Part shown: positions 1,657 through 26,123 of the stretch, piece by piece
Layout: the number at the start of each line of letters is the position of its first letter
Numbering within the stretch: the stretch's first letter is position 1
Source of the DNA: Nanobdellota archaeon
GTDB taxonomy: Archaea; Nanobdellota; Nanobdellia; Nanobdellales; Nanobdellaceae
DNA length: 32,000 nt
Direction of reading: 5' to 3'
NCBI GenBank assembly: GCA_042850255.1
Contig: AP031373.1
Span: 480,001-512,000, forward strand
Position numbers and translations under genes: made by a program
Notes under the pieces: model-generated
Database searches by the model: none
Told to the model about the DNA's origin: nothing
What the model saw: only the letters and a program-made list of their open reading frames with translations

Positions 1657-1986
1657 TTATTTTATGCTTTCTTGTTTAAATCTACGCTTTCGATATAGAT
1701 AGACTCCAATAATAAATGGTATTAATCCTAACCACATTAAGAATAAGGCTAGTAAGTATACTATTATCCAATCTTTTTTAGAAACTTTTTCTAATTTTTC
1801 ATAAAAATCAATCATCACTAGCATAGTTAAGAATAATGCCGTACCTAAGAATATTATTAGAAAGAAAATTATTTCCAATATATAAGATCCTAAGAAATTA
1901 TTGGATAAGCCTATCCACATGAATATCATAACTGCTAAAAATTCTAATATGCTTCCTAAAAGTAATTTTTTAGATATTGGCTTCAT
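1657..1986 (-). CDS. hypothetical small integral membrane protein
   Basis: 109-aa ATG ORF with about 3-4 hydrophobic helices. No family recognised. Confidence 0.5.
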   Translation of the reverse strand: MKPISKKLLLGSILEFLAVMIFMWIGLSNNFLGSYILEIIFFLIIFLGTALFLTMLVMIDFYEKLEKVSKKDWIIVYLLALFLMWLGLIPFIIGVYLYRKRRFKQESIK

Positions 1987-2106
1987 TTAAGTATTATTTT
2001 GATAGTAAAATTTTTGATTTTTTATTTATGAATAATATAGGTTATATATGCTTTGTTTTCACAAAAAATATTCAAAACTTTAGTTTTTAGTATTTTTGAA
2101 CTAAAG

Positions 2107-2181
2107 CGGACCCGGGGGGATTCGAACCCCCGACCTACGGCTTAGAAGGCCGTCGCTCTATCCATGCTGAGCTACGGGTCC
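2107..2181 (-). tRNA. tRNA-Arg (anticodon UCU)
   Basis: The minus strand reads GGACCCG-TA-GCTC-AGCATGGATA-GAGC-G-ACGGC-CTTCTAA-GCCGT-AGGTC-GGGGG-TTCGAAT-CCCCC-CGGGTCC-G. This is a full cloverleaf with a GTTCGAATC T-loop and a CU-UCU-AA anticodon loop. No CCA is encoded. It is a G+C-rich island in AT-rich DNA. Confidence 0.93.
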
Positions 2182-2217: not shown

Positions 2218-2267
2218 TCTGCATATCGATGTTTCATCATATCTTCAGTAATGCCTTGCCTCTTCAT
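2218..2267 (-). ncRNA. candidate archaeal box C/D sRNA (2'-O-methylation guide) with non-consensus terminal boxes
   Basis: The minus strand reads ATGAAGA(C-like)-GGCAAGGCATTA(12 nt)-CTGA(D')-AGAT-ATGATGA(C')-AACATCGATATG(12 nt)-CAGA(D-like). The spacing matches the canonical 12-nt-guide archaeal architecture. It is relatively G+C-rich and intergenic. Confidence 0.5.
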
Positions 2268-3297: not shown

Positions 3298-3417
3298 ATA
3301 TTTACTTGTTTACTGATATTTATAGATAAAAGTGAATAAGGAAACTACATATTAAGGGTTCTAAGAATTTTGTTTATAAATTTTCAATATATAAGTTTTT
3401 TTAAAATCATAAATATT

Positions 3418-5130
3418 ATGAATAATACTAATTCTGTATATAATAAACTTCTACAACAATTTGGAGATAAAGAATTTTCTATTAATGATATATTAAATAA
3501 AAAAATATTTGGAGATAATGAAAAAGATATTTTAGAAATATTAAATAAATTAAAAGAAAAAGGTTTATTAATTTTTGATAAAGAAAAAAATAAGTATAAA
3601 TTATTAATAAAATCTTTTGCAAATTATTCTAATTTAAAATCATCATTAAAGAAAGCTGCCGATTTAGTAAGAAACATGTCAGATGGTTATAAAATCCTTT
3701 TAGTTTTATTATTTTACAAAGCATTTAGTGATATATGGAAGAAAGAATATATTGAAGCAAAAGATCAATTAATAAAACAAGGTTTGCCCGAAAAGGATGC
3801 AGAAAAATTATCTAAATTAGAAGGATATCATATTATTAATATACCAGAAGAATATTTATGGGAAAATATATTAAGAACTAGAGAAGGATTAATTGAAAAA
3901 CTTATAAAAGCATTAAGAACTATTTCGGAGAGAAATCTAAAATTATCAGATTCTATTAATAGATTATTAAGATATATAGAAGATTTAAGAAATAAAGAAG
4001 GTTCTGACTTACTTATAAGACAAGCCATGGAAGTATTTAATAATATAGATTTTTCAAATTTAGATTTTGATGCTTTGGGATATGCATATGAATGGTTAAT
4101 AGAACAATTTATGCCAGCTCAGAAGAAGGCAGGAGAATTATTTACTCCTAGAGAAGTTATAGAAGTTTTAGTTAGAATATTAGATCCTTCTAAAGAAAGG
4201 AGGAAAATATTAGATCCGGCTGCAGGATCTGGTGGTATGTTAATAGAAGTATATAAATATGTTAGAAATAATTATGGAGAAGATGTTGCAAAAGAATTAA
4301 TATTAGTTGGACAGGAAATTAATGATGATACATATGCAATATTAGAATTAAATTTTCTTTTACATGGTATAGAATTGGGAAAAAATGTAAAATTATATAG
4401 AGGAGATTCTATATTAAATCCAGGATTTAAAAATGATGGACCATTTGATATTATTATATTTAATCCACCATGGAATGATGATAGATATAATGAAGAAGTT
4501 TTAAAAAAATCTGCAATAAAAGAAATATTTGATAAATATGGATTTCCCCCAAAAACCTCTGCAGATTGGGCTTGGATATTGTTATCATTAAATTACGTAA
4601 ATGATAATGGAAAAGTTGGTATTGTTATAGATAATGGAACTTTATTTAGAGGTGGTAGAGAAAAAACTATAAGAAGTAAAATAATTGAAAATGATTGGGT
4701 AGAGTGTGTAATATTATTACCAGATAAGTTATTTTATAATACTGGAGCACCAGGTGCTATAATAATTTTTAATAAGAATAAACCTGAAAATAGGAAAAAG
4801 AAAATATTATTTATAAATGCTTCCAATTATTATGAAAATCATCCAGATATAAAGAAAATGAATAAATTAAGTAGAGAGGGAATAGAGAAAATTGTAGAAG
4901 TTTATAAAGAATGGAAAGAAATACCAGAATTTTCTAAAACAGTTTCTATAGAAGAAGTAATTAAAAATGATTATAGTTTAAATGTTACTTTATATGTATA
5001 TAATAATTTACAAAATGAAGAAATAAATATAAAAGAAGTATGGGAAGAATTAGAAAAAGTTAATAAAGAATTGAACGAATTGGAAGGAAAAATAAATGAA
5101 TGGATAAATGAAATTACTAAAATAATATAA
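3418..5130 (+). CDS. hsdM: type I restriction-modification system, methyltransferase subunit HsdM (N6-adenine), with an N-terminal winged-helix-like extension
   Basis: HsdM N-domain pattern LKKAADLVRNMSDGYKILLVLLFYKAFSD; FTPREV; SAM motif ILDPAAGSGGML; catalytic NPPW. The track ORF starts at a TTG (3370). The first ATG is at 3418. Confidence 0.9.
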   Translation: MNNTNSVYNKLLQQFGDKEFSINDILNKKIFGDNEKDILEILNKLKEKGLLIFDKEKNKYKLLIKSFANYSNLKSSLKKAADLVRNMSDGYKILLVLLFYKAFSDIWKKEYIEAKDQLIKQGLPEKDAEKLSKLEGYHIINIPEEYLWENILRTREGLIEKLIKALRTISERNLKLSDSINRLLRYIEDLRNKEGSDLLIRQAMEVFNNIDFSNLDFDALGYAYEWLIEQFMPAQKKAGELFTPREVIEVLVRILDPSKERRKILDPAAGSGGMLIEVYKYVRNNYGEDVAKELILVGQEINDDTYAILELNFLLHGIELGKNVKLYRGDSILNPGFKNDGPFDIIIFNPPWNDDRYNEEVLKKSAIKEIFDKYGFPPKTSADWAWILLSLNYVNDNGKVGIVIDNGTLFRGGREKTIRSKIIENDWVECVILLPDKLFYNTGAPGAIIIFNKNKPENRKKKILFINASNYYENHPDIKKMNKLSREGIEKIVEVYKEWKEIPEFSKTVSIEEVIKNDYSLNVTLYVYNNLQNEEINIKEVWEELEKVNKELNELEGKINEWINEITKII

Positions 5131-5132
5131 AG

Positions 5133-5876
5133 ATGATTAATTATAAAATAAAAGATCTAAAATATAATGAAAACTGGAGATATGATCCGGAGTTTAAGAT
5201 ATTTATAGATTCTAATATTTTAGTAGATGGATCACTTAATAATTTTAGGTTTAAATCTTATAAAAAATTATTTGATGATCTATTTATAAAATCTAAGTTT
5301 ATTATCCTTGAAACTAATGTCATTAATATAGTCGAAGCAATTAAGATTCTTATGGACAAAGCAAAAGTTCATTTTTTTATAGATGAATTTGCTCATAATG
5401 TAAATGAACTAAAACATTTACCAGAAAAATATAGAAATTTTATTAATAAGTATTATAATGATATAAGAGAATCATATGGAAAACTATATATTAATAAGCT
5501 CGAAAAGTTTTTAAATTCATACAGAATCTCTGTAATTGATAATGTCAAAATAATATATAAGGATGAAGGTATTTCAGAAAATTGTCAATTTTTGTTAGAA
5601 GACGATGGTTTACTAAATCTCTTTATAATATATGATAAAAGAATAGAATATAATGATTTTATAAGTTTGGCTACTGCTAATCAATTAAAAGACAATATAT
5701 TCATTACTACTGATAACAGATTAGCTGATTCAGTAAAAGATTATAGAATAAATCATTCGAATAATTTTCGATATGTATATTCGCTTGCAGATAGAGGACA
5801 TATAGAAGATCTATTAAAAGATTTAATGAATTGGGGAATAATCGAGAATTATAAAATAGAAGATATCAGACAGTAG
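5133..5876 (+). CDS. PIN-domain-like putative nuclease embedded in the type I R-M operon
   Basis: 247-aa ATG ORF starting 3 nt after hsdM. The acidic motifs appear in PIN/VapC order: KIFIDSNILV, FIILETNV..VE, NDFISLATANQL, NIFITTDNRLA. A large insertion lies between the second and third motifs. Confidence 0.5.
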   Translation: MINYKIKDLKYNENWRYDPEFKIFIDSNILVDGSLNNFRFKSYKKLFDDLFIKSKFIILETNVINIVEAIKILMDKAKVHFFIDEFAHNVNELKHLPEKYRNFINKYYNDIRESYGKLYINKLEKFLNSYRISVIDNVKIIYKDEGISENCQFLLEDDGLLNLFIIYDKRIEYNDFISLATANQLKDNIFITTDNRLADSVKDYRINHSNNFRYVYSLADRGHIEDLLKDLMNWGIIENYKIEDIRQ

Positions 5877-5877
5877 C

Positions 5878-7212
5878 ATGTTAAATAAATTAGTTTTCTA
5901 TAAGGAGATAAAATTTAAAGATATTCCAGAATTAGGAATAAAAATTCCTGAAGATTGGAGAATTAAAAGATTAGTAGAAATATGCTCAAAAATAAGAGCA
6001 GGAGGCACACCTAAAAGAGAAGTTTCAGAATATTGGGGAGGAAGTATACCATTTGTAAAAATAGAAGACATAACTAAAAGTGGCAAATATCTTTATAAAA
6101 CGGAAGAGACAATTACAGAGTTAGGTATAAAAAATTCGAATGCTTGGATGATACCAAAAAATTCTCTACTTTTAGCTATGTATGGTAGCTTAGGAGAAAT
6201 TTCTATAAATAAAATTGAAGTAGCTACGAATCAAGCTATTTTGGGGATTATTCCAAATCCAAATAAAATATATCTAGAATATTTATATTATTGGTACCTA
6301 TTTTTTAAGCCTAATTGGAAAAAATATGCTAAACCTACAACTCAAGCCAATTTGACAGCCGAAATCGTCAAAAATTCTTTGATTCCTCTTCCTCCTCTCG
6401 AAGAACAAAAAGCTATTGCAGAAATATTAAGTACTATAGATAAAACAATCGAAAAGATTCAAGAGAATATCGAAAAAACTGAAAAATTAAAAAAAAGTTT
6501 AATGCAAAAATTGTTAACGGGAGAAATAATAGTTAAAGAAGAAAATGGAAAATATATATTTTATAAGGAGATAAAATTTAAAGATATTCCAGAATTAGGA
6601 ATAAAAATTCCTGAAGATTGGAGAATTAAAAGATTAGATGATAATGAAATTTCTTTAAATATAAGATCAGGAACTACGCCATCTAAAAGAAAAGAATCAT
6701 ATTGGAATGGAAATATTTTATTTGTTACAATTAGCGATATGACTAAAACAAATAAATACCTTATAGATACAGAAAATAAGATAACAGAACTAGCTCTGAA
6801 AGAATCTAAAGTACTTTTAATTCCAGAAGAAAATATACTTCTATCTATGTATGGAACTATAGGGAAAGTAGTTATTAATAAGAAACCAGTAGCTATAAGT
6901 CAGAATATTGCTGGTATTATAGTAAATAAGCAATATGTGGATATTAATTACTTATTCTATGCTTTAAAATATTATTCATATCAATTTGACCGAGCTAAGA
7001 TCATTACTTTAAAACATTTAGATATAAAAATCGTCAAAAATTCTTTGATTCCTCTTCCTCCTCTCGAAGAACAAAAAGCTATTGCAGAAATATTAAGTAC
7101 TATAGATAAAAAAATAGAACTATTAAAACAGAAAAAAGAATTATTAGAAATAATTAAAAAATGGTTTATGAAAAAATTGTTAGCAGGAGAAATAAGAGCA
7201 AAATATGGATGA
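5878..7212 (+). CDS. hsdS: type I restriction-modification system, specificity subunit HsdS (two target recognition domains)
   Basis: 444 aa in two tandem halves of about 221 aa. Each half has a TRD followed by the conserved IPLPPLEEQKAIAEILSTIDK helix typical of HsdS. Confidence 0.9.
   Translation: MLNKLVFYKEIKFKDIPELGIKIPEDWRIKRLVEICSKIRAGGTPKREVSEYWGGSIPFVKIEDITKSGKYLYKTEETITELGIKNSNAWMIPKNSLLLAMYGSLGEISINKIEVATNQAILGIIPNPNKIYLEYLYYWYLFFKPNWKKYAKPTTQANLTAEIVKNSLIPLPPLEEQKAIAEILSTIDKTIEKIQENIEKTEKLKKSLMQKLLTGEIIVKEENGKYIFYKEIKFKDIPELGIKIPEDWRIKRLDDNEISLNIRSGTTPSKRKESYWNGNILFVTISDMTKTNKYLIDTENKITELALKESKVLLIPEENILLSMYGTIGKVVINKKPVAISQNIAGIIVNKQYVDINYLFYALKYYSYQFDRAKIITLKHLDIKIVKNSLIPLPPLEEQKAIAEILSTIDKKIELLKQKKELLEIIKKWFMKKLLAGEIRAKYG
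5899..5974. repeat. 76-bp perfect direct repeat, copy 1 (start of TRD1)
   Basis: Identical to 6562-6637: tataaggagataaaatttaaagatattccagaattaggaataaaaattcctgaagattggagaattaaaagattag. Confidence 0.9.
6362..6445. repeat. 84-bp perfect direct repeat, copy 1 (conserved region after TRD1)
   Basis: Identical to 7028-7111: aaatcgtcaaaaattctttgattcctcttcctcctctcgaagaacaaaaagctattgcagaaatattaagtactatagataaaa. Confidence 0.9.
6562..6637. repeat. 76-bp perfect direct repeat, copy 2 (start of TRD2)
   Basis: Identical to 5899-5974, at an offset of 663 nt. Confidence 0.9.
7028..7111. repeat. 84-bp perfect direct repeat, copy 2 (conserved region after TRD2)
   Basis: Identical to 6362-6445, at an offset of 666 nt. 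Confidence 0.9.
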
Positions 7213-8290
7213 TAAATATTATATATATGGAGAATATCTTTTATATGTTTTTATAATAATTATTATTTTTTCTTATATATTTCTAGTTATATTTAGAATA
7301 ATATATAATAGTATTTTTTATATTTTAAACCCTAATCTGTTAAATATAACCTTAAATATACTAAATAAGCAGATTTTAAATAGTTTAATTATATCTATAT
7401 TGTCGGTCTACATTTATCAGTTATATATCATTTTTAATAAAAAGTCTCATTTTTCAGATATATTTGAACAAAATAAAATATATATAAATATTGGTAATTT
7501 ATTTACGAACTTAGCAGGAATGGTTTTATATAACCCCTTTATTAATTTTGTATTTTTATTTTTGATATATTATTATGTATATATTATTTTTGGAAATCTT
7601 CCATCTTTACTATTTATAGTAGTTTTTTATGTTTCCCTTCTTTTAATAGAGTTTATTTTTAGAAATTTATTGTACTTAGATATTACAATAAAGTCTAATT
7701 ACAGTTCTCTCAAAGAATTTTATGATCCTTATATAAACAAAAAGATACAAGTAGATAATAAAGGTTATCTGATAGCCTCAGCTTTAATCATAAGTATAAA
7801 TACAGCATTTTTTTATATTATCCGATGTTTTTCGATATTTATTATAAGTATATTATTTGTGGTTTTGCTTATAATGGTCGTATTTACGATTTTGGTAGCT
7901 ATAAAAAAATTGAAAAAAGAGTATCTTATCTATTTTTATCGAGAACTATATCCTAATTTAAATATTTTTTATTCTTTGTTAAGGTTTTTCGAATATATGA
8001 TAATAATAGTTATTCCTTTTTTACTTTATTATATTTTTTACTATATGAATCTTTTAGAAATCATCAAAATTATAATTGCCTTTATTATAATAGAAGTTAT
8101 GTTGGATATAATAACTGTTTTTAACAAAATATTAAAAATTCCTTTCCTTATTAAATATTTAGAATTAGAAAACGGTATATTTTATGCCAATATCTTGCTT
8201 CTCGAAGAAACAAAAGATTATTTAATTATTTTAGATCAATCTAATAATATAATTAGAGTCTATAAAAATAAAATTATTGAAATGTATTAA
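7205..8290 (+). CDS. hypothetical polytopic membrane protein embedded between hsdS and hsdR
   Basis: 361-aa ATG ORF whose start overlaps the hsdS stop (ATGGATGA). It has roughly 7-9 hydrophobic helices by eye and a short soluble C-terminal tail, LELENGIFYANILLLEETKDYLIILDQSNNIIRVYKNKIIEMY. No family recognised. Confidence 0.55.
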   Translation: MDDKYYIYGEYLLYVFIIIIIFSYIFLVIFRIIYNSIFYILNPNLLNITLNILNKQILNSLIISILSVYIYQLYIIFNKKSHFSDIFEQNKIYINIGNLFTNLAGMVLYNPFINFVFLFLIYYYVYIIFGNLPSLLFIVVFYVSLLLIEFIFRNLLYLDITIKSNYSSLKEFYDPYINKKIQVDNKGYLIASALIISINTAFFYIIRCFSIFIISILFVVLLIMVVFTILVAIKKLKKEYLIYFYRELYPNLNIFYSLLRFFEYMIIIVIPFLLYYIFYYMNLLEIIKIIIAFIIIEVMLDIITVFNKILKIPFLIKYLELENGIFYANILLLEETKDYLIILDQSNNIIRVYKNKIIEMY

Positions 8291-8326
8291 GTTATATAAA
8301 AGGTATTACAAATATATTAAATTATA

Positions 8327-11300
8327 ATGAATGAGCAACAAATCAAACAAAAAGTATTGGAAATTTTAAAATCAAATAATTGGAATTATATTGAAAGTAA
8401 AAATTTAAACAAATCATCAAAAGAGATTATTATAGAAGATATCTTCTTCAAAAAAATAAGAGAATTAAATAAAAATTTAGAATTAACTGATAAAGATATA
8501 GAAAAAGTTTTAGATAAATTATTAAATTCTGATGGTAAAGAAGTTTTAAGATATTTAAAGAAGGGAATTTCAATTAAATTAGAAAAAACAAATAATATAG
8601 AAACAATAAAGATAATAGATTATGAAAATATAGAAAATAATTCCTTTATTGTATCTGATGAAGTTAGATTTAAACAAATGGAAAATGAGATTTATGTAGA
8701 TTTAGTACTGTTTATTAACGGAATTCCTTTTATTATAATAGAAAATGAAAGTATGAAAGATGGAGAGTGGAAAAAAGGATTTCAACAAATAGTTAATTAT
8801 ATTAAACTTATACCAAAATTAGCAAATATAAGTCAAATAGGTTTAGTTATTGCAGATAATATATATTATTTTCCAATTGATGAAGAATTTATTAAAAAGG
8901 AAGAATCTAAATTAGAAGGAAGATTGCAAATATGGAAACCTGATGAAAATAGAAAAACTAACGATTGGAATACAATATTAAATTCAACTATTGGCTATTT
9001 ATTAAAACCTGAAATATTATTAAAAATAATAAAATATTATACTTTTTATCAAATAAAAGAGAATAGAAAAATATTGCCAAGATATTTTCAATTTTATACT
9101 GTTGAAAAATTATATAATAAATTTAAAGAAAGATTGGAAGGAAAATCTAGTGATAAAAGTTGGGTTGTATGGCATTATCAAGGATCAGGAAAATCTATGA
9201 CAATGGCTTATTTATCTAAAATAATATTAAATAAATTGGGTAAAGAATTTTCAATAGATCCTGTAATATTAATTGTGGTTGATAGATTAGAATTACAAAA
9301 TCAAATGGATGAACAGACTTTTAAAAATGTAGATTTAGATTTAGAGCATCCTGAAAAAGTTATCGATAATTTAAGAGAATTATTAATTGATATATTAAGA
9401 AAAGGAGAAAAACCACAATCTGGTGTATATATTGTAACTATACAAAAGTTTGGGAAAAGTAGTTCAGAAGAATCTGAAGATGAAGATTTAAATACAGACG
9501 ATTTATATAATTCAGTAAAAGGTGTTGGATTAACAGAAGAAGATATAAAAAGAATTTCGGGAAGAAAAGATATATTTATATTAATAGATGAGGCGCATAG
9601 GAGTCATTATGGAAAATTGGGAAAAATACTAAATTATATATTTGGATCTGCATTTTATGTTGCATTTACAGGTACTCCATTATTAGGTAAAGATAAAAAT
9701 ACATTTAGATTATTTGGAGAACCTATAGATATATATTTTATTGATGAAGCTGAAGAAGATAAATATATAGTTCCTATCTTTTATAGAGCAGAATATGATA
9801 TAATAAATTTGACTTTAGATATACTTAAAAAAGAAAAAGAAATAAAAGATAATGAAGAATATAATAAAGTTATTACTGAAGTATTAGAAGGATATTTACC
9901 AGAAAATTTAGAAAATATAGAAAAAATTTATAATTTAAATGAATCTTTAAAGAGAAAATTATTAGATTTAAGAAGATTAGTATTTGAGAATGATTATAGA
10001 ATTAAAGAAATTAGTAAGAAAATATCTGAACATTTTAAAAATGAAGTAGAGCCTTTAGGTTTTAAAGCAATGGTAATAGTAGCTACTAGAAAAGCTGCAG
10101 TTAGGTATGTAAAAATATTAAAAGAATTGTTGGGAGAAGATACTGTAGAAGCAATTATAACATATCAAGGAACAGAAGATGATACTGAAATTTTGAATTA
10201 TAGGGAATATTTAATAAAAAAATATGGAAAAGGATTGAAAGATTATAATGAATTAAATGATATAATAAAAAATAAGTTTAAGGAAGATGAAAATCCAAAA
10301 ATATTGGTAGTAGTAAATAAATTAATAACAGGTTTTGATGAGAAGAAATTACAAACAATATATATAGATAGGTTTATGGTTAGTCATACATTATTACAAG
10401 CTATAGGGAGATGTGATAGACCATATCCTGAAAAGAATAAAGTTAATGGCTTAATAGTAGATTTTGTTGGATTAATAGATAGATTAAAAAAAGCCATTGA
10501 TTTATATTTTGGAACTAAAGATATAAAATTGGATCAATCAATATTATTGGAATATAAAGATATAAAAAGCGAATTAAAGAAAATTATAGATAAAATAAAT
10601 GAAAAAATATTTAATATTGTAGATATGGACCTAAATAAGGAGTTATCTAATTATAAGAAATATTTAGAGAATAATAATGTAGAATCTATAAAAGATTTAA
10701 TAGACGATATAATATTAGATATACTAGAAAATGGTTTAGATGGAAAATTTAGGGAAATTTTTAGAGAATTTGAAAGTACTTTATTTTCTCCAGTAACAGA
10801 TTTAAATATAAGGGAAGAATTTTATATATATTATGAGTTTTTATTATTAATTAAAAGTCAGATAGATTCTTTAAAAGAAAATGAAATAAAAACAGTTGAT
10901 GATATTAAAAGAATAGCAAATATTAAGGCTGAAGAAATTTTAGATAAATTATATAAAAATACAACGATACAACAATTTTTAACTTTTGAAAAGAAAGAAC
11001 TATCAGAAATAGTATCTGATGTAAAATCTGGAAAATATATAAATATTATAGATTTAAATAAGTTATCAAATAACGAAAAAGAGAGTAAAAAGGTATTGGC
11101 AAAATCTGTAAAGGCAATGATAATACTAAAAGAAAATGAACCGGCTTTTGTAGATATAATAGACAAAATAATAAAGAAAATTCAAGATTATAATAGAAAG
11201 AAGTATAATTCTTATATGATATTAAGTGAATTAATACCAGAAATTAAAAAGATACAAGAAATAGAAGATATAAAAAATAAATATAATTTTGATAGTGATG

Positions 11301-11581
11301 GATTGTTTATCTATAATTTATTATCAGAATCAATTAAAGATTTAAATGAAGAAGAGTTAATAAACATATCTAAGAAAATAAGAGAAAAGATATTGGAAGC
11401 TGAAGAACATAAAGAAAGTAATGATTTTTGTAGAATATTAAGTAGGAATATACAATTTGGGGTTGTTATATCATTATTAAATAAAAATATTGATGAAAAT
11501 ATAAAAGAAAATATAGTAAAAAGGATAAAAGAGCATTTTGCTAATAAATATAAGGAATGTCAGGACGAACTATTAAGATAA
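8327..11581 (+). CDS. hsdR: type I restriction enzyme, restriction/helicase subunit HsdR
   Basis: 1084 aa. The N-terminal PD-(D/E)xK-like nuclease region is VDLVLFINGIPFIIIENESMK. SF2 helicase motif I is GSGKS, motif II is LIDEAHRSH (DEAH), and the later motif is QAIGRCDR. Confidence 0.92.
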   Translation: MNEQQIKQKVLEILKSNNWNYIESKNLNKSSKEIIIEDIFFKKIRELNKNLELTDKDIEKVLDKLLNSDGKEVLRYLKKGISIKLEKTNNIETIKIIDYENIENNSFIVSDEVRFKQMENEIYVDLVLFINGIPFIIIENESMKDGEWKKGFQQIVNYIKLIPKLANISQIGLVIADNIYYFPIDEEFIKKEESKLEGRLQIWKPDENRKTNDWNTILNSTIGYLLKPEILLKIIKYYTFYQIKENRKILPRYFQFYTVEKLYNKFKERLEGKSSDKSWVVWHYQGSGKSMTMAYLSKIILNKLGKEFSIDPVILIVVDRLELQNQMDEQTFKNVDLDLEHPEKVIDNLRELLIDILRKGEKPQSGVYIVTIQKFGKSSSEESEDEDLNTDDLYNSVKGVGLTEEDIKRISGRKDIFILIDEAHRSHYGKLGKILNYIFGSAFYVAFTGTPLLGKDKNTFRLFGEPIDIYFIDEAEEDKYIVPIFYRAEYDIINLTLDILKKEKEIKDNEEYNKVITEVLEGYLPENLENIEKIYNLNESLKRKLLDLRRLVFENDYRIKEISKKISEHFKNEVEPLGFKAMVIVATRKAAVRYVKILKELLGEDTVEAIITYQGTEDDTEILNYREYLIKKYGKGLKDYNELNDIIKNKFKEDENPKILVVVNKLITGFDEKKLQTIYIDRFMVSHTLLQAIGRCDRPYPEKNKVNGLIVDFVGLIDRLKKAIDLYFGTKDIKLDQSILLEYKDIKSELKKIIDKINEKIFNIVDMDLNKELSNYKKYLENNNVESIKDLIDDIILDILENGLDGKFREIFREFESTLFSPVTDLNIREEFYIYYEFLLLIKSQIDSLKENEIKTVDDIKRIANIKAEEILDKLYKNTTIQQFLTFEKKELSEIVSDVKSGKYINIIDLNKLSNNEKESKKVLAKSVKAMIILKENEPAFVDIIDKIIKKIQDYNRKKYNSYMILSELIPEIKKIQEIEDIKNKYNFDSDGLFIYNLLSESIKDLNEEELINISKKIREKILEAEEHKESNDFCRILSRNIQFGVVISLLNKNIDENIKENIVKRIKEHFANKYKECQDELLR

Positions 11582-12237
11582 ATAATTTGGAATTTAATAT
11601 AAAGGTAGAAAAAACAAATTCTAAATATACATACATAAAATTTAATGGTAATAATATAATAATAAAAACGAAGTTTAATAATGTTGATAATATAATACCA
11701 ATTATAGAAAAAAATTTGGAAAAATTAGAATTATATTCTTTACCAAAAGAGATATTCGAAGAATTACCAATATTTGGAATTCCATATAAATTAATTATAA
11801 AAAATATAAAAAGAAAATATTTAATATTTCATAAGAAAAGATTAATTATATTAAATCCAAATTATAAGGAAGATTTTATTAATTATCTATCGAAATTATT
11901 AATTAAATATTGTAGTAAAGAGATTAAGAAGTTTTTAAAATTATTAGACATAAATATAAATCCAGAGATAGAAATAAAAATTATGAAATCTAAATATGCT
12001 TATGTAAAGGATAATAAAATATATTTGAGTATAATAAATGTATTTTTTCCAAAATATTTGATAGATTATATTTTATTTCATGAAGTTATACATTTTAAGA
12101 TTAAAAATCATGGCTATCAATTTAAAAAGTTATTAGAAATGCTTTATCCAAATTATAAAGAATTAGAAAAAGAATTAAAAAAGTGGACAATTGCAATATT
12201 CTATAACAAAAATATAAATAATTTATTAAATATCTAA
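11557..12237 (+). CDS. DUF45/YgjP-like zinc metallohydrolase (HExxH), a family frequently linked to type I R-M loci
   Basis: 226-aa ATG ORF overlapping the hsdR 3' end by 25 nt. The C-terminal ILFHEVIHFKIKNHGYQFKKLLEMLYPNYKE matches the DUF45 HExxH...H..F signature. Confidence 0.7.
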   Translation: MSGRTIKINNLEFNIKVEKTNSKYTYIKFNGNNIIIKTKFNNVDNIIPIIEKNLEKLELYSLPKEIFEELPIFGIPYKLIIKNIKRKYLIFHKKRLIILNPNYKEDFINYLSKLLIKYCSKEIKKFLKLLDININPEIEIKIMKSKYAYVKDNKIYLSIINVFFPKYLIDYILFHEVIHFKIKNHGYQFKKLLEMLYPNYKELEKELKKWTIAIFYNKNINNLLNI

Positions 12238-24540: not shown

Positions 24541-24759
24541 TTATTTTATTTTAACTCTATATAAAGGAAATTTACCCTTATATGATAAATAAATATATAT
24601 GTTTATAATTACCATTAATACAATTATTAAAATTGATATTGGATATAGATTTTGATAAGGATTCATATATAAATTTGTAATAACTATTAAGAATACAATA
24701 AAAGTTATTATTAATGATAAATATAATTCATATTTAGTTGCATATAATTCTTGTTCCAT
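24541..24759 (-). CDS. hypothetical small membrane protein
   Basis: 72-aa ATG ORF with two hydrophobic helices, lying 5 nt upstream of the mutase gene. Confidence 0.4.
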   Translation of the reverse strand: MEQELYATKYELYLSLIITFIVFLIVITNLYMNPYQNLYPISILIIVLMVIINIYIYLSYKGKFPLYRVKIK

Positions 24760-24797
24760 AAAATATTTTACTAAAAAATATTTTTAATTTTAAAAAA

Positions 24798-24846
24798 TCT
24801 GTGCTCAAGACCCTCATCATATATCAGCCGATGAGTTTGTCTTCAT
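24798..24846 (-). ncRNA. candidate archaeal box C/D sRNA with the same non-consensus terminal boxes as 2218-2267
   Basis: The minus strand reads ATGAAGA(C-like)-CAAACTCATCGG(12)-CTGA(D')-TAT-ATGATGA(C')-GGGTCTTGAGCA(12)-CAGA(D-like)-TTTTTT. It is a G+C-rich island. The C-like box overlaps the TGA stop of ORF 24843-26123. Confidence 0.5.
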
Positions 24847-26123
24847 CCTCCCCATGGGAATGGATAATTATTAGAATTTTGATTATTATTAGAATTTGTA
24901 TTAATATTTACAGATGCTGATGCTTGTGTACTAGAATTATTTTTAGCAATTGAAGATCTTTCTTCTCCTTCAATTTCCATTATACTAGAATTTAATCCTT
25001 CCTCCTCTCCAATTTCTACTTCTATTTTATATCTTATTTTATCAAAATGTTCTTCTTCAACATTTTCTTGAAATCCTTCACCTACTGATCTAACCACATT
25101 CCAGTCGTCCATTTCCAAATTATTTTGTAAGGACATTAAATAAGGAATTGCTGTAACATTTCCAGATTTTAATTCTTGAATTGTTTGTTGTAATGATTGA
25201 TTTAATTGTGGTAGTACTGTACAAATTGGTAATGAATTATTTGTTACATTACATATTAATGCAAATTTATATACTAATAGTACTTGTTGATCTATTAATC
25301 TATTTATATGCTTTTCTATAATATATGATACATTTATATTATTATTTCTATATTTCATAAAGTCGTCATCTATTTCTTTTTCTAACTCATCTTTTTCTAA
25401 TGTAACATTTACTGGTTGATTTACAACATATGGTACTATACAAGCTCCATGTAATTCTCCTATAAGTAAATATCTTATATCCTCCCAAGAAGTATTATCA
25501 GTAATATTTACATATATATAGCTATTACATTGTACAGAAGGAGTAATATTTGGGGTATATATAGTATATTTAATACCTAAGCTATTTAATTGATCTGTAA
25601 TATTTCCTAAGTCTCCAATATTTCCAGTAAATATGTATACATTACTTACGTTTAATTTTTCTAATGTATAAACAGTTTCTGTAGGTAATACACCATCAGG
25701 AACAATCAATAATGGTATATTATTTGATTCTGCAGTTTCTACAGCTTCTGTTACTAGTTTTAGTTTATAACCTTTAACATTATGATTTACAAGATCTCTT
25801 GTAATTAATACTGCAGAACTGGAACTATTCCAGAAATATAATGCAACATCTGCAGATGTATCATACCTTGTTGCTCCCCAAATCCATGTATATTTTATAT
25901 CAGATTCATTTAAATCTTGTAATAATAAATTTGATATTACTGCAGGACCTCCTATTACAATTACATTTGTTACATTATTTTGTAATAACATTTGTACCGT
26001 TTCATTTATCGATGACGGATTTTGCCTTACAGTATAAATTGGTATTTTATATACTTCCCCTACTACGCTAGCTGTTATATAATCTGCATATGTAATATTT
26101 GTAACCAAGATTGCAGTAACCAT
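24843..26123 (-). CDS. putative surface glycoprotein with cell-wall-binding repeat 2 (CW_binding_2)-like modules
   Basis: 426 aa. ADYITASVVGEVYKIPIY...VIVIGGPAVIS...WGATRYDTSADVALYF resembles the PF04122-type repeat. It carries about 18 N-x-S/T sequons and an Asn-rich C-terminus. Confidence 0.5.
   Translation of the reverse strand: MVTAILVTNITYADYITASVVGEVYKIPIYTVRQNPSSINETVQMLLQNNVTNVIVIGGPAVISNLLLQDLNESDIKYTWIWGATRYDTSADVALYFWNSSSSAVLITRDLVNHNVKGYKLKLVTEAVETAESNNIPLLIVPDGVLPTETVYTLEKLNVSNVYIFTGNIGDLGNITDQLNSLGIKYTIYTPNITPSVQCNSYIYVNITDNTSWEDIRYLLIGELHGACIVPYVVNQPVNVTLEKDELEKEIDDDFMKYRNNNINVSYIIEKHINRLIDQQVLLVYKFALICNVTNNSLPICTVLPQLNQSLQQTIQELKSGNVTAIPYLMSLQNNLEMDDWNVVRSVGEGFQENVEEEHFDKIRYKIEVEIGEEEGLNSSIMEIEGEERSSIAKNNSSTQASASVNINTNSNNNQNSNNYPFPWGG

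Follow-up and report, generated by a model that had tools for sequence, protein, structure and literature searches.

Anatomy of the element at 24798-24846

The window, i.e. the whole stretch of 32,000 nucleotides that was analyzed, contains two minus-strand genes which flank a short A/T-rich spacer. The upstream gene (24843..26123) encodes a protein with cell-wall-binding (CWB2) repeats, the downstream gene (24541..24759) a hydrophobic protein of 72 amino acids. Where the upstream gene ends, the minus strand reads, from 24846 to 24798, AUGAAGA, 12 nt, CUGA, UAU, AUGAUGA, 12 nt and CAGA, and is followed by six U residues. Its sequence, the pattern statistics and the orthologs described below identify this stretch as the candidate core of a box C/D sRNA gene (24798..24846, minus strand), which, both terminal boxes included, measures 49 nt. 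At either end, the mature RNA would probably exceed this core by a few nucleotides.

All parts of the element lie on the minus strand. The C box AUGAAGA (24840..24846) deviates from the consensus RUGAUGA by an A for U at position 5 and includes the UGA stop codon (24843-24845) of the CWB2 reading frame. Next come the 12-nt D' guide CAAACTCATCGG (RNA CAAACUCAUCGG; 24828..24839), whose N+5 nucleotide is A24832, and the canonical D' box CUGA (24824..24827). The spacer UAU (24821..24823), the predicted loop of an internal k-loop, separates the latter from the canonical C' box AUGAUGA (24814..24820). The D guide GGGTCTTGAGCA (RNA GGGUCUUGAGCA; 24802..24813), likewise of 12 nt and with G24806 as N+5 nucleotide, leads to the D box CAGA (24798..24801), in which an A replaces the U at position 2 of the consensus CUGA. 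This variant A faces the variant A of the C box, one position past the two sheared G.A pairs. The run TTTTTT directly 3' of the D box (24792..24797) is likely to be an archaeal transcription stop signal. Hence, the element comprises everything that makes up the anatomy of a box C/D RNA, namely C and D boxes with the G and A residues for the sheared pairs, a k-loop and two guides of about 12 nt.

The first-pass annotation of this DNA had proposed just this succession of boxes and guides, and the layout was confirmed to the base. The sequence bore out both guide lengths, the canonical D' and C' boxes and the oligo-U tail, as well as the claim that the TGA of ORF 24843-26123 resides within the C-like box (24845-24843). 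The element is indeed a G+C-rich patch of the spacer, as had been stated: its G+C content is 43% versus 3% for 24760-24797 and about 22% for the whole window. A motif that had been placed about 18 nt upstream was recovered as TAATAATTAT, which ends 17 nt upstream of the C box.

Class membership and a second sRNA in the window

The window was searched for the pattern ATGAAGA-N10-14-CTGA-N2-8-ATGATGA-N12-CAGA, with 100 dinucleotide-preserving shuffles of the window as control. This variant-box pattern matched twice in the window, at 24798-24846 and at 2218-2267, and not once in the 100 shuffles. The second predicted sRNA (2218..2267, minus strand; AUGAAGA...CUGA...AUGAUGA...CAGA) is located 36 nt upstream of the tRNA-Arg(UCU) gene on the same strand, and orthologs of it were detected in the loci L055, L069, L102 and L110. 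The U-to-A changes in the C and D boxes are common to both elements, as had correctly been noted before. Scanning the window for canonical boxes yielded no further sRNA.

At gathering thresholds, Rfam recognized only tRNA-Arg(UCU) and tRNA-Pro(UGG) in the window, and the element did not match any family. With permissive settings it matched about 20 Pyrococcus C/D (sR) families weakly, over the full length and via the boxes only; the top score (sR52) was 26 bits versus a threshold of 50. Since these matches were weak and driven by the boxes, the element resembles the C/D class and lies outside every curated family. It is an ordinary, previously unannotated member of a known RNA class. The anatomy of the element, its conservation and its complementarity to a tRNA are the data from which we infer expression, protein binding and methylation. 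Taken together, they make it highly probable that the element is an archaeal box C/D sRNA gene whose product serves as guide for 2'-O-ribose methylation.

Orthologs and conservation

Orthologs beyond that of Nanobdella were retrieved by a variant-box scan of 185,579 species-representative genomes, from which copies are given as found among the matches listed. The same RNA was present in Nanobdella aerobiophila, Nanopusillus spp., Nanobsidianus stetteri and Nanoclepta minutus; further copies, among the matches listed, came from at least six Nanopusillus/Nanobsidianus assemblies and Nanoclepta minutus. In an alignment of eight sequences from four genera (A1), all four boxes, the guide cores ACTCATCG and GGTCTTGAGC and the T run after the D box, which comprised five to six residues in every ortholog, were invariant. 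Accordingly, ACUCAUCG (core of the D' guide) and GGUCUUGAGC (core of the D guide) were unchanged in all aligned orthologs. Differences were limited to positions 1-3 of the D' guide, position 1 of the D guide, the base beside each D-type box, the sequence between D' and C', and the flanking DNA; the spacing of the boxes was identical. Invariant boxes and guide cores combined with free guide ends are the pattern expected of a trans-acting guide RNA.

The first-pass annotation had made its proposal depend on the conservation of boxes and spacing in homologous regions of related genomes, and there both were kept exactly. The predicted sRNA gene is conserved across the Nanopusillaceae and Nanoclepta, and one of its guides is common with Nanoarchaeum equitans and Ignicoccus, as judged by sequence comparison.

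Neighboring genes and the shared stop codon

The DNA comes from a nanoarchaeon of the Nanopusillaceae. The relatives of the CWB2 protein all belonged to this family (Nanopusillus acidilobi, 61% identity; Nanobdella aerobiophila, 50% identity). The gene order Trm1, Hef helicase-nuclease, DHH protein, CWB2, 72-aa protein and phosphoglucomutase is common to the window, Nanobdella and Nanopusillus. The gene of the 72-aa protein was linked to the sRNA in every ortholog (nine of nine loci), with the sRNA 25-40 nt before its ATG. In the window as well as in Nanobdella, the gene upstream is that of the CWB2 protein. The Nanobdella sRNA, which spans positions 11179-11227 of the locus L003 (AP019769.1), occupies the same place, and the TGA of its C box again is the stop codon of the CWB2 gene. 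The Nanopusillus copies follow a different gene, which ends 37-44 nt before the sRNA, and the fetched stretches are devoid of a CWB2 gene. N. acidilobi and the loci L004-L006 lack the sRNA 3' of their CWB2 gene. In Nanoclepta, an upstream ORF reads through C box and D' guide as far as the TGA in the D' box, where it ends.

The UGA of the C box serves as stop of the CWB2 gene because the sRNA gene is located at the very end of the latter. At their C-terminal ends, the CWB2 proteins show no conservation (..NYPFPWGG* versus ..SNYYYYP*), which is consistent with a reading frame running on to the first stop codon, supplied by the sRNA gene. A comparable situation has been described for Pyrobaculum: in 23 cases, the upstream gene obtains its stop from the C box of an sRNA that follows on the same strand (Lui et al. 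2018, PMC6009581). As in our element, the 5'-end of these sRNAs supplies the UGA of an upstream ORF on the same strand, but they belong to a different phylum and possess canonical RUGAUGA boxes (PMC6009581). Two features had initially been regarded as unusual, namely the variant boxes and a C box that contains a stop codon. Both were already documented, in N. equitans and in Pyrobaculum, respectively.

Transcription from an own promoter or excision from the mRNA

There are two ways in which such an RNA might come into being. We slightly favor transcription from an own A/T-rich promoter about 25 nt upstream, ending at the U6 run, and consider this somewhat more likely than excision from the CWB2 mRNA. 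In the Nanopusillus orthologs, the intergenic region harbors the TATA-like sequence TTTTAAAATAAA at -31 to -20 (about -26) from the C box. The run of five to six U residues, which follows box D in all copies, would stop transcription before the 72-aa gene is reached. TATA-like A/T octamers also occur near -27 in the window and in Nanobdella. As indications of a promoter within the coding region we rejected these octamers, which are uninformative in a genome of 22-26% G+C and in the tail of a protein rich in Asn and Tyr.

It is quite possible, though, that the C/D sRNA is the 3'-end of the CWB2 mRNA, which L7Ae, Nop5 and fibrillarin would release or protect during decay of the messenger. The element overlaps the CWB2 gene on the same strand, and neither the window nor Nanobdella offers intergenic space for a promoter. 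[quoted passage not shown] Against an origin from the CWB2 messenger stands the observation that the upstream gene changes among the lineages while the sRNA is kept, the downstream gene being its only constant neighbor. In Nanopusillus, the other gene already ends 37-44 nt upstream, with the TATA-like TTTTAAAATAAA in between, and in Nanoclepta the upstream ORF terminates in the D' box. In addition, the 5'-ends of the N. equitans sRNAs reside at the C box or a few nucleotides before it and are preceded by A/T boxes (PMC3491384), which also argues for a promoter belonging to the sRNA gene.

The D guide and the anticodon arm of tRNA-Leu(CAA)

If the RNA is assembled in accordance with the established archaeal C/D RNP mechanism, from which our proposal is derived, its terminal C box AUGAAGA and D box CAGA would form a kink-turn, and the internal C' and D' boxes a k-loop. 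Each of these motifs would be bound by L7Ae and then by Nop5 and fibrillarin; binding of L7Ae to the k-turn or k-loop is to be expected, as the sheared G.A pairs are kept. Each 12-nt guide would pair with a target RNA, in which fibrillarin would methylate the nucleotide that faces guide base five, counted upstream from D or D'. Genes for L7Ae, Nop5 and fibrillarin were not found within the window. N. equitans encodes fibrillarin (NEQ125) and NOP56 (NEQ342) (PMC3491384).

The complement of the D guide, UGCUCAAGACCC, corresponds to the anticodon arm of tRNA-Leu(CAA) containing the loop CUCAAGA, and C34 occupies the N+5 position. When metagenomes were scanned for GCTCAAGACC with a T-loop behind it, dozens of archaeal genes for tRNA-Leu(CAA) emerged whose arm reads NNGGG-CUCAAGA-CCCNN, including some on low-G+C contigs of the N. 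acidilobi clade; on viral contigs, the tRNA pattern only detected phage tRNAs. Throughout the family, the tRNA-Leu(CAA) gene adjoins a phosphoglycerate mutase gene, by way of which it was reached in Nanobdella, in one MAG of the Nanopusillaceae and in the locus L253. For the window, the match refers to L253, the closest available relative, whose mutase is 71% identical to P0091 of the 773-kb contig that contains the window.

Between the D guide and G31-C41 of the tRNA-Leu(CAA) of L253 and Nanopusillus, there are 11 uninterrupted Watson-Crick pairs (-23.2 kcal/mol), compared with the minimum of 9 bp expected for a C/D guide and its target. This was the best pairing among 84 distinct tRNAs, and its energy is within the PLEXY range for N. 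equitans. The target site reads GCUCAAGACC, and C34 faces the fifth guide base before box D. In Nanobdella, the tRNA has the arm AUGGA-CUCAAGA-UCCAU (stem GGA/UCC) and the guide is unchanged, so that pairing is made up of seven Watson-Crick pairs, one G.U and one further Watson-Crick pair (-13.2 kcal/mol). The same guide is found in the sRNA sR12 of N. equitans, there in the D' position, and in sR37 of Ignicoccus hospitalis. Biochemical evidence for the site comes from Pyrococcus abyssi, whose sR47, by the guide upstream of box D, methylates C34 of tRNA-Leu(CAA) in vitro (PMC3413156), and the same C34 site has been predicted for P. furiosus (PMC7668247). We therefore regard it as likely that the D guide directs the formation of Cm34, at the wobble position, in tRNA-Leu(CAA).

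The sRNA could also be genuine and have another RNA as target of its D guide, for instance an rRNA with GCUCAAGACC, the match to the tRNA being a coincidence. In favor of this, the stem of the Nanobdella tRNA has diverged without a compensating change of the guide, and the RNAs of this family that we compared were tRNAs. Nevertheless, we deem this explanation unlikely, because a perfect match of 11 nt that puts the wobble base exactly at N+5 is improbable in about 3.5 kb of tRNA (an estimate for the tRNA set of one genome, about 46 tRNAs of 75 nt each, and not for the 84 tRNAs compared). Moreover, C34 of tRNA-Leu(CAA) has been proven to be a target of C/D guidance in Pyrococcus (PMC3413156), and PLEXY disclosed for N. 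equitans sR12, which carries the identical guide, only a weak match containing G.U pairs in the rRNAs of N. equitans, i.e. no good one (PMC3491384). At its 5'-end, the D guide starts with G in the window and Nanopusillus, facing C41 in the tRNAs of Nanopusillus and L253, and with A in Nanobdella, Nanoclepta and N. equitans. As the Nanobdella tRNA, the one tRNA compared from these latter three, also has C41, which is mismatched there, this base gives no evidence of compensation.

In bacteria and eukaryotes, Cm34 of tRNA-Leu(CAA) is made by stand-alone enzymes, TrmL and Trm7-Trm734, respectively. If the predicted function of the D guide is true, methylation of this wobble base would be RNA-guided in these archaea, which is a specific and testable statement.

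The D' guide

From the N+5 nucleotide A24832, the target of the D' guide is predicted to be the U in ..CCGA[U]GAGUU.., and the conserved core implies ..CGA[U]GAGU..; on the target side the sequence would read CCGAUGAGUU. A search of rRNA and tRNA for counterparts of the two guides had been suggested at the outset: for the D guide, one was found in the tRNA-Leu(CAA) of relatives, while for the D' guide CCGAUGAGUUUG no target was found in the available nanoarchaeal tRNAs or in 255 fetched loci, which include no rRNA.

Among tRNAs, the D' guide matched best the U44 site, where anticodon stem and variable arm of tRNA-Leu(CAA) meet, as present in two tRNAs from metagenomes (L249, -15.4 kcal/mol; L223, -12.2 kcal/mol). 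U44 was rejected as a general target since the variable arm differs in the tRNA-Leu(CAA) of Nanobdella, Nanopusillus and L253. The D' guide, with its invariant core, is under selection too and would have as target a U in ..CGA[U]GAGU.. that probably belongs to an rRNA. One conceivable place for CGAUGAGU would be behind the conserved AAACGAUG of 16S rRNA. It is conceivable, but rather unlikely, that this conserved guide is directed against a site that is not known to be methylated in other archaea.

Functions other than that of a trans-acting guide

The close linkage to the 72-aa gene (nine of nine loci, 25-40 nt before the ATG) might suggest that the element acts in cis, as an L7Ae-binding kink-turn in the leader of this gene or in the 3' UTR of the CWB2 mRNA, by which translation or stability is regulated. 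Regulation of translation by L7Ae via k-turns in archaeal leaders is known (PMC5539422, PMC6298567). Several observations render such a function of the element very improbable. In every ortholog, an oligo-T stop signal is situated between the element and the downstream gene. Both 12-nt spacers are conserved in the manner of guides, with invariant cores and free ends, which a k-turn acting in cis would not require, and one of the guides recurs in the unlinked sRNAs of N. equitans and Ignicoccus.

That box-like words, which are short and whose pattern also matched bacterial genomes by chance in a scan of 596 Gb, merely clustered in an A/T-rich spacer and have no function is effectively refuted by the conservation, as boxes and guide cores agree exactly among genera in which the surrounding DNA and the proteins retain 50-60% identity, and the two matches in the window face none in 100 shuffles.

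Relation to known C/D sRNAs

The element has much in common with the sRNAs of N. equitans, which are about 50-60 nt long, contain 12-nt guides, lack a terminal stem, are followed by a U run and often overlap mRNAs (PMC3491384). The D' guide of N. equitans sRNA12, AGGUCUUGAGCC, equals the D guide of the element; sR12 differs from the latter in having this guide in the D' position and in its second guide (PMC3491384). The guide ACUCAUCG was present in none of the N. equitans sRNAs of that set (PMC3491384). Outside the boxes and the shared guide, identity to sR12 is nil, so the two RNAs possess a related guide and are not demonstrable orthologs.

P. abyssi sR47 uses the guide upstream of box D to pair with the CUCAAGA of tRNA-Leu(CAA), which brings C34 to the methylation position (PMC3413156). 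Its activity was shown in vitro with L7Ae, Nop5 and fibrillarin (PMC3413156). Compared with the consensus of the Rfam family sR47 (RF01131), the element scored 14.7 bits versus a threshold of 40, and the consensus D guide of the family is different. The D guide of I. hospitalis sR37, AGGUCUUGAGCG, which is also located upstream of box D, is identical over 10-11 nt, but this sRNA of a crenarchaeal host organism has G+C-rich boxes (CGAUGAGGA...CUGA) and another D' guide (Dennis et al. 2015, PMC4644070).

The Nanopusillaceae, ectosymbionts whose genomes measure about 0.6-0.8 Mb, have hardly any annotation of their non-coding genes. With the element, the set of small RNAs of this family gains a conserved guide RNA that had not been annotated.

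Covariation of the variant boxes

In the terminal motif of the element, both sheared G.A pairs are kept and the adjoining U.U is replaced by A.A. The first-pass annotation had drawn attention to this paired substitution, and it turned out to be a real covariation that also exists in sRNAs of N. equitans validated by RNA-seq. Randau (2012, PMC3491384) lists 26 C/D sRNAs of this organism, each with more than 3,000 RNA-seq reads. Eight of them (sRNAs 8, 9, 14, 16, 17, 19, 21 and 23) have the terminal boxes [A/G]UGAAGA and CAGA; exact AUGAAGA...CAGA terminals together with canonical internal boxes are present in sRNAs 9, 14, 17, 19, 21 and 23. In a further four of the 26 (sRNAs 1, 5, 7 and 18), it is the internal C'/D' motif that contains the GAAGA/CAGA pair. 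No CAGA in this set is partnered by UGAUGA (Fisher p = 4e-5 for the terminal motifs). Because CAGA is always accompanied by GAAGA, we concluded that the change from U.U to A.A is a true covariation. Among the N. equitans sRNAs that have these boxes, several escaped prediction by snoscan (PMC3491384).

About 205 kb of Nanopusillaceae DNA had been fetched regardless of sRNAs, and all four well-formed sRNAs on it possess the A.A terminal motif. In a wider, biased set of Nanopusillaceae sequences, a few sRNAs have canonical terminal boxes, and one of these contains A.A internally (L057/L104). What appears to be new here is the dominance and strict covariation of the A.A kink-turn in this lineage, together with the conserved second guide. 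AUGAAGA/CAGA appears to be the common terminal motif of the lineage. Standard scanners based on RUGAUGA/CUGA will miss most of its sRNAs.

With regard to the structure, the tandem sheared G.A pairs of the box C/D k-turn studied by the Lilley laboratory are retained in the element (PMC5689011, PMC4382518). The difference concerns the position after the G.A pairs (3b:3n), at which archaeal and human box C/D motifs have 'a strong propensity to U:U' (PMC5689011), as opposed to A.A in our sequence. Folding of the A.A form or its affinity to L7Ae was not found described in these box C/D k-turn papers (PMC5689011, PMC4382518). The strict A.A/U.U covariation constitutes a natural data set for the sequence rules of k-turns. 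It is conceivable, but rather doubtful, that the C/D sRNAs of nanoarchaea make use of a deliberate asymmetry, with A.A in one kink motif and U.U in the other. If this were true, such a code would tell C/D from C'/D', or prevent mispairing of C with D' and of C' with D in RNAs without a terminal stem, and it may have co-evolved with L7Ae or Nop5.

Among the matches listed in the variant-box scan, AUGAAGA...CAGA was also found in N. equitans, Woesearchaeota, Desulfurococcaceae, Pyrodictiaceae, Thermoproteaceae, Thermococcus and others; the scattered matches in bacteria were due to chance. In the Nanopusillaceae, the A.A pair was almost always located in the terminal C/D motif.

Genes adjoining the two variant-box sRNAs

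The box C/D guide RNA at 24798-24846 (-), which carries AUGAAGA and CAGA as terminal boxes, has an ortholog in Nanoclepta minutus that was located at 1975-2023 (+) of the locus L074. There, the C box and the entire D' guide of the sRNA are read through by the upstream ORF, whose stop codon is the UGA of the D' box. Because this ORF runs on to the D'-box UGA, the D' guide is also a coding sequence in Nanoclepta. Downstream of the sRNA lies a gene for a hydrophobic protein of 72 aa (24541-24759 (-) in the window; protein beginning with MEQELYATKYELY), which was found at the same place in all nine orthologous loci, that of Nanoclepta included. A Pfam search with the protein gave no match.

The second sRNA of this architecture (2218-2267 (-)) reads AUGAAGA-GGCAAGGCAUUA-CUGA-AGAU-AUGAUGA-AACAUCGAUAUG-CAGA and is followed 36 nt downstream of its end by tRNA-Arg(UCU) on the same strand (2106-2181 (-)). 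Since its orthologs in L055, L069, L102 and L110 adjoin tRNA-Arg(UCU) and tRNA-Pro(UGG) as well, the gene order suggests a conserved sRNA-tRNA unit, which would resemble the tRNA-sRNA transcripts of N. equitans. Comparison of the guides GGCAAGGCAUUA and AACAUCGAUAUG with tRNAs disclosed no convincing target.

Distribution of the A·A pair and of the variant boxes

Many nanoarchaeal sRNAs contain the A·A pair, which replaces the usual U·U after the sheared G·A pairs, in exactly one of their two kink motifs. An sRNA of a Nanopusillaceae MAG (L057 / L104; ATGATGA-ATTTGCCGAGTT-CAGA-TCG-ATGAAGA-ATTCTACCCATG-CTGA) has canonical terminal boxes and harbors the pair in the internal motif, the same build as that of sRNAs 1, 5, 7 and 18 in the published N. 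equitans set.

Among the sRNAs with variant boxes, the family most widely recovered in Nanopusillaceae possesses the guides AAUCGAUGUCGA / AAAGAGGGUAUU (L014, L015, L024, L025, L034, L043, L080, L090, L101 and L116) and usually lies near tRNA-Ala(GGC) and tRNA-Gly(UCC). A pair of sRNA candidates with such boxes was detected back to back on opposite strands at L121 451-547, their C boxes overlapping within the palindrome TCTTCATGAAGA. DNA of the closest relative found, retrieved for an unrelated purpose, contained a further AUGAAGA...CAGA sRNA (L253 5109-5156 (+); guides CATCTATGTCGG / GGCTGTTATCCA), the D guide of which may, as we presume, be complementary to a GGAUAACAGCC-like segment of 23S rRNA.

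Other genes

In the N. acidilobi clade, the phosphoglycerate mutase adjacent to tRNA-Leu(CAA) is a protein of 314 aa in which PF01676 is the only domain (L137 833-1777). The counterparts encoded by Nanobdella, by the genome of the window and by other Nanopusillaceae measure about 412 aa and contain PF10143 and PF01676. Judged from this comparison of L137 833-1777 with P0091, the mutase of the window's genome, and the protein P0093, the N. acidilobi clade may have a truncated form of the enzyme.

The window of this reduced nanoarchaeal genome also harbors a type I restriction-modification system (3370-11581 (+)) with an N6 DNA methylase (3370-5130 (+)), a specificity subunit (5878-7212 (+)) and an ORF of 1084 aa (8327-11581 (+)), which may encode the restriction subunit. 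A YgjP-like metallopeptidase is encoded at 11557-12237.
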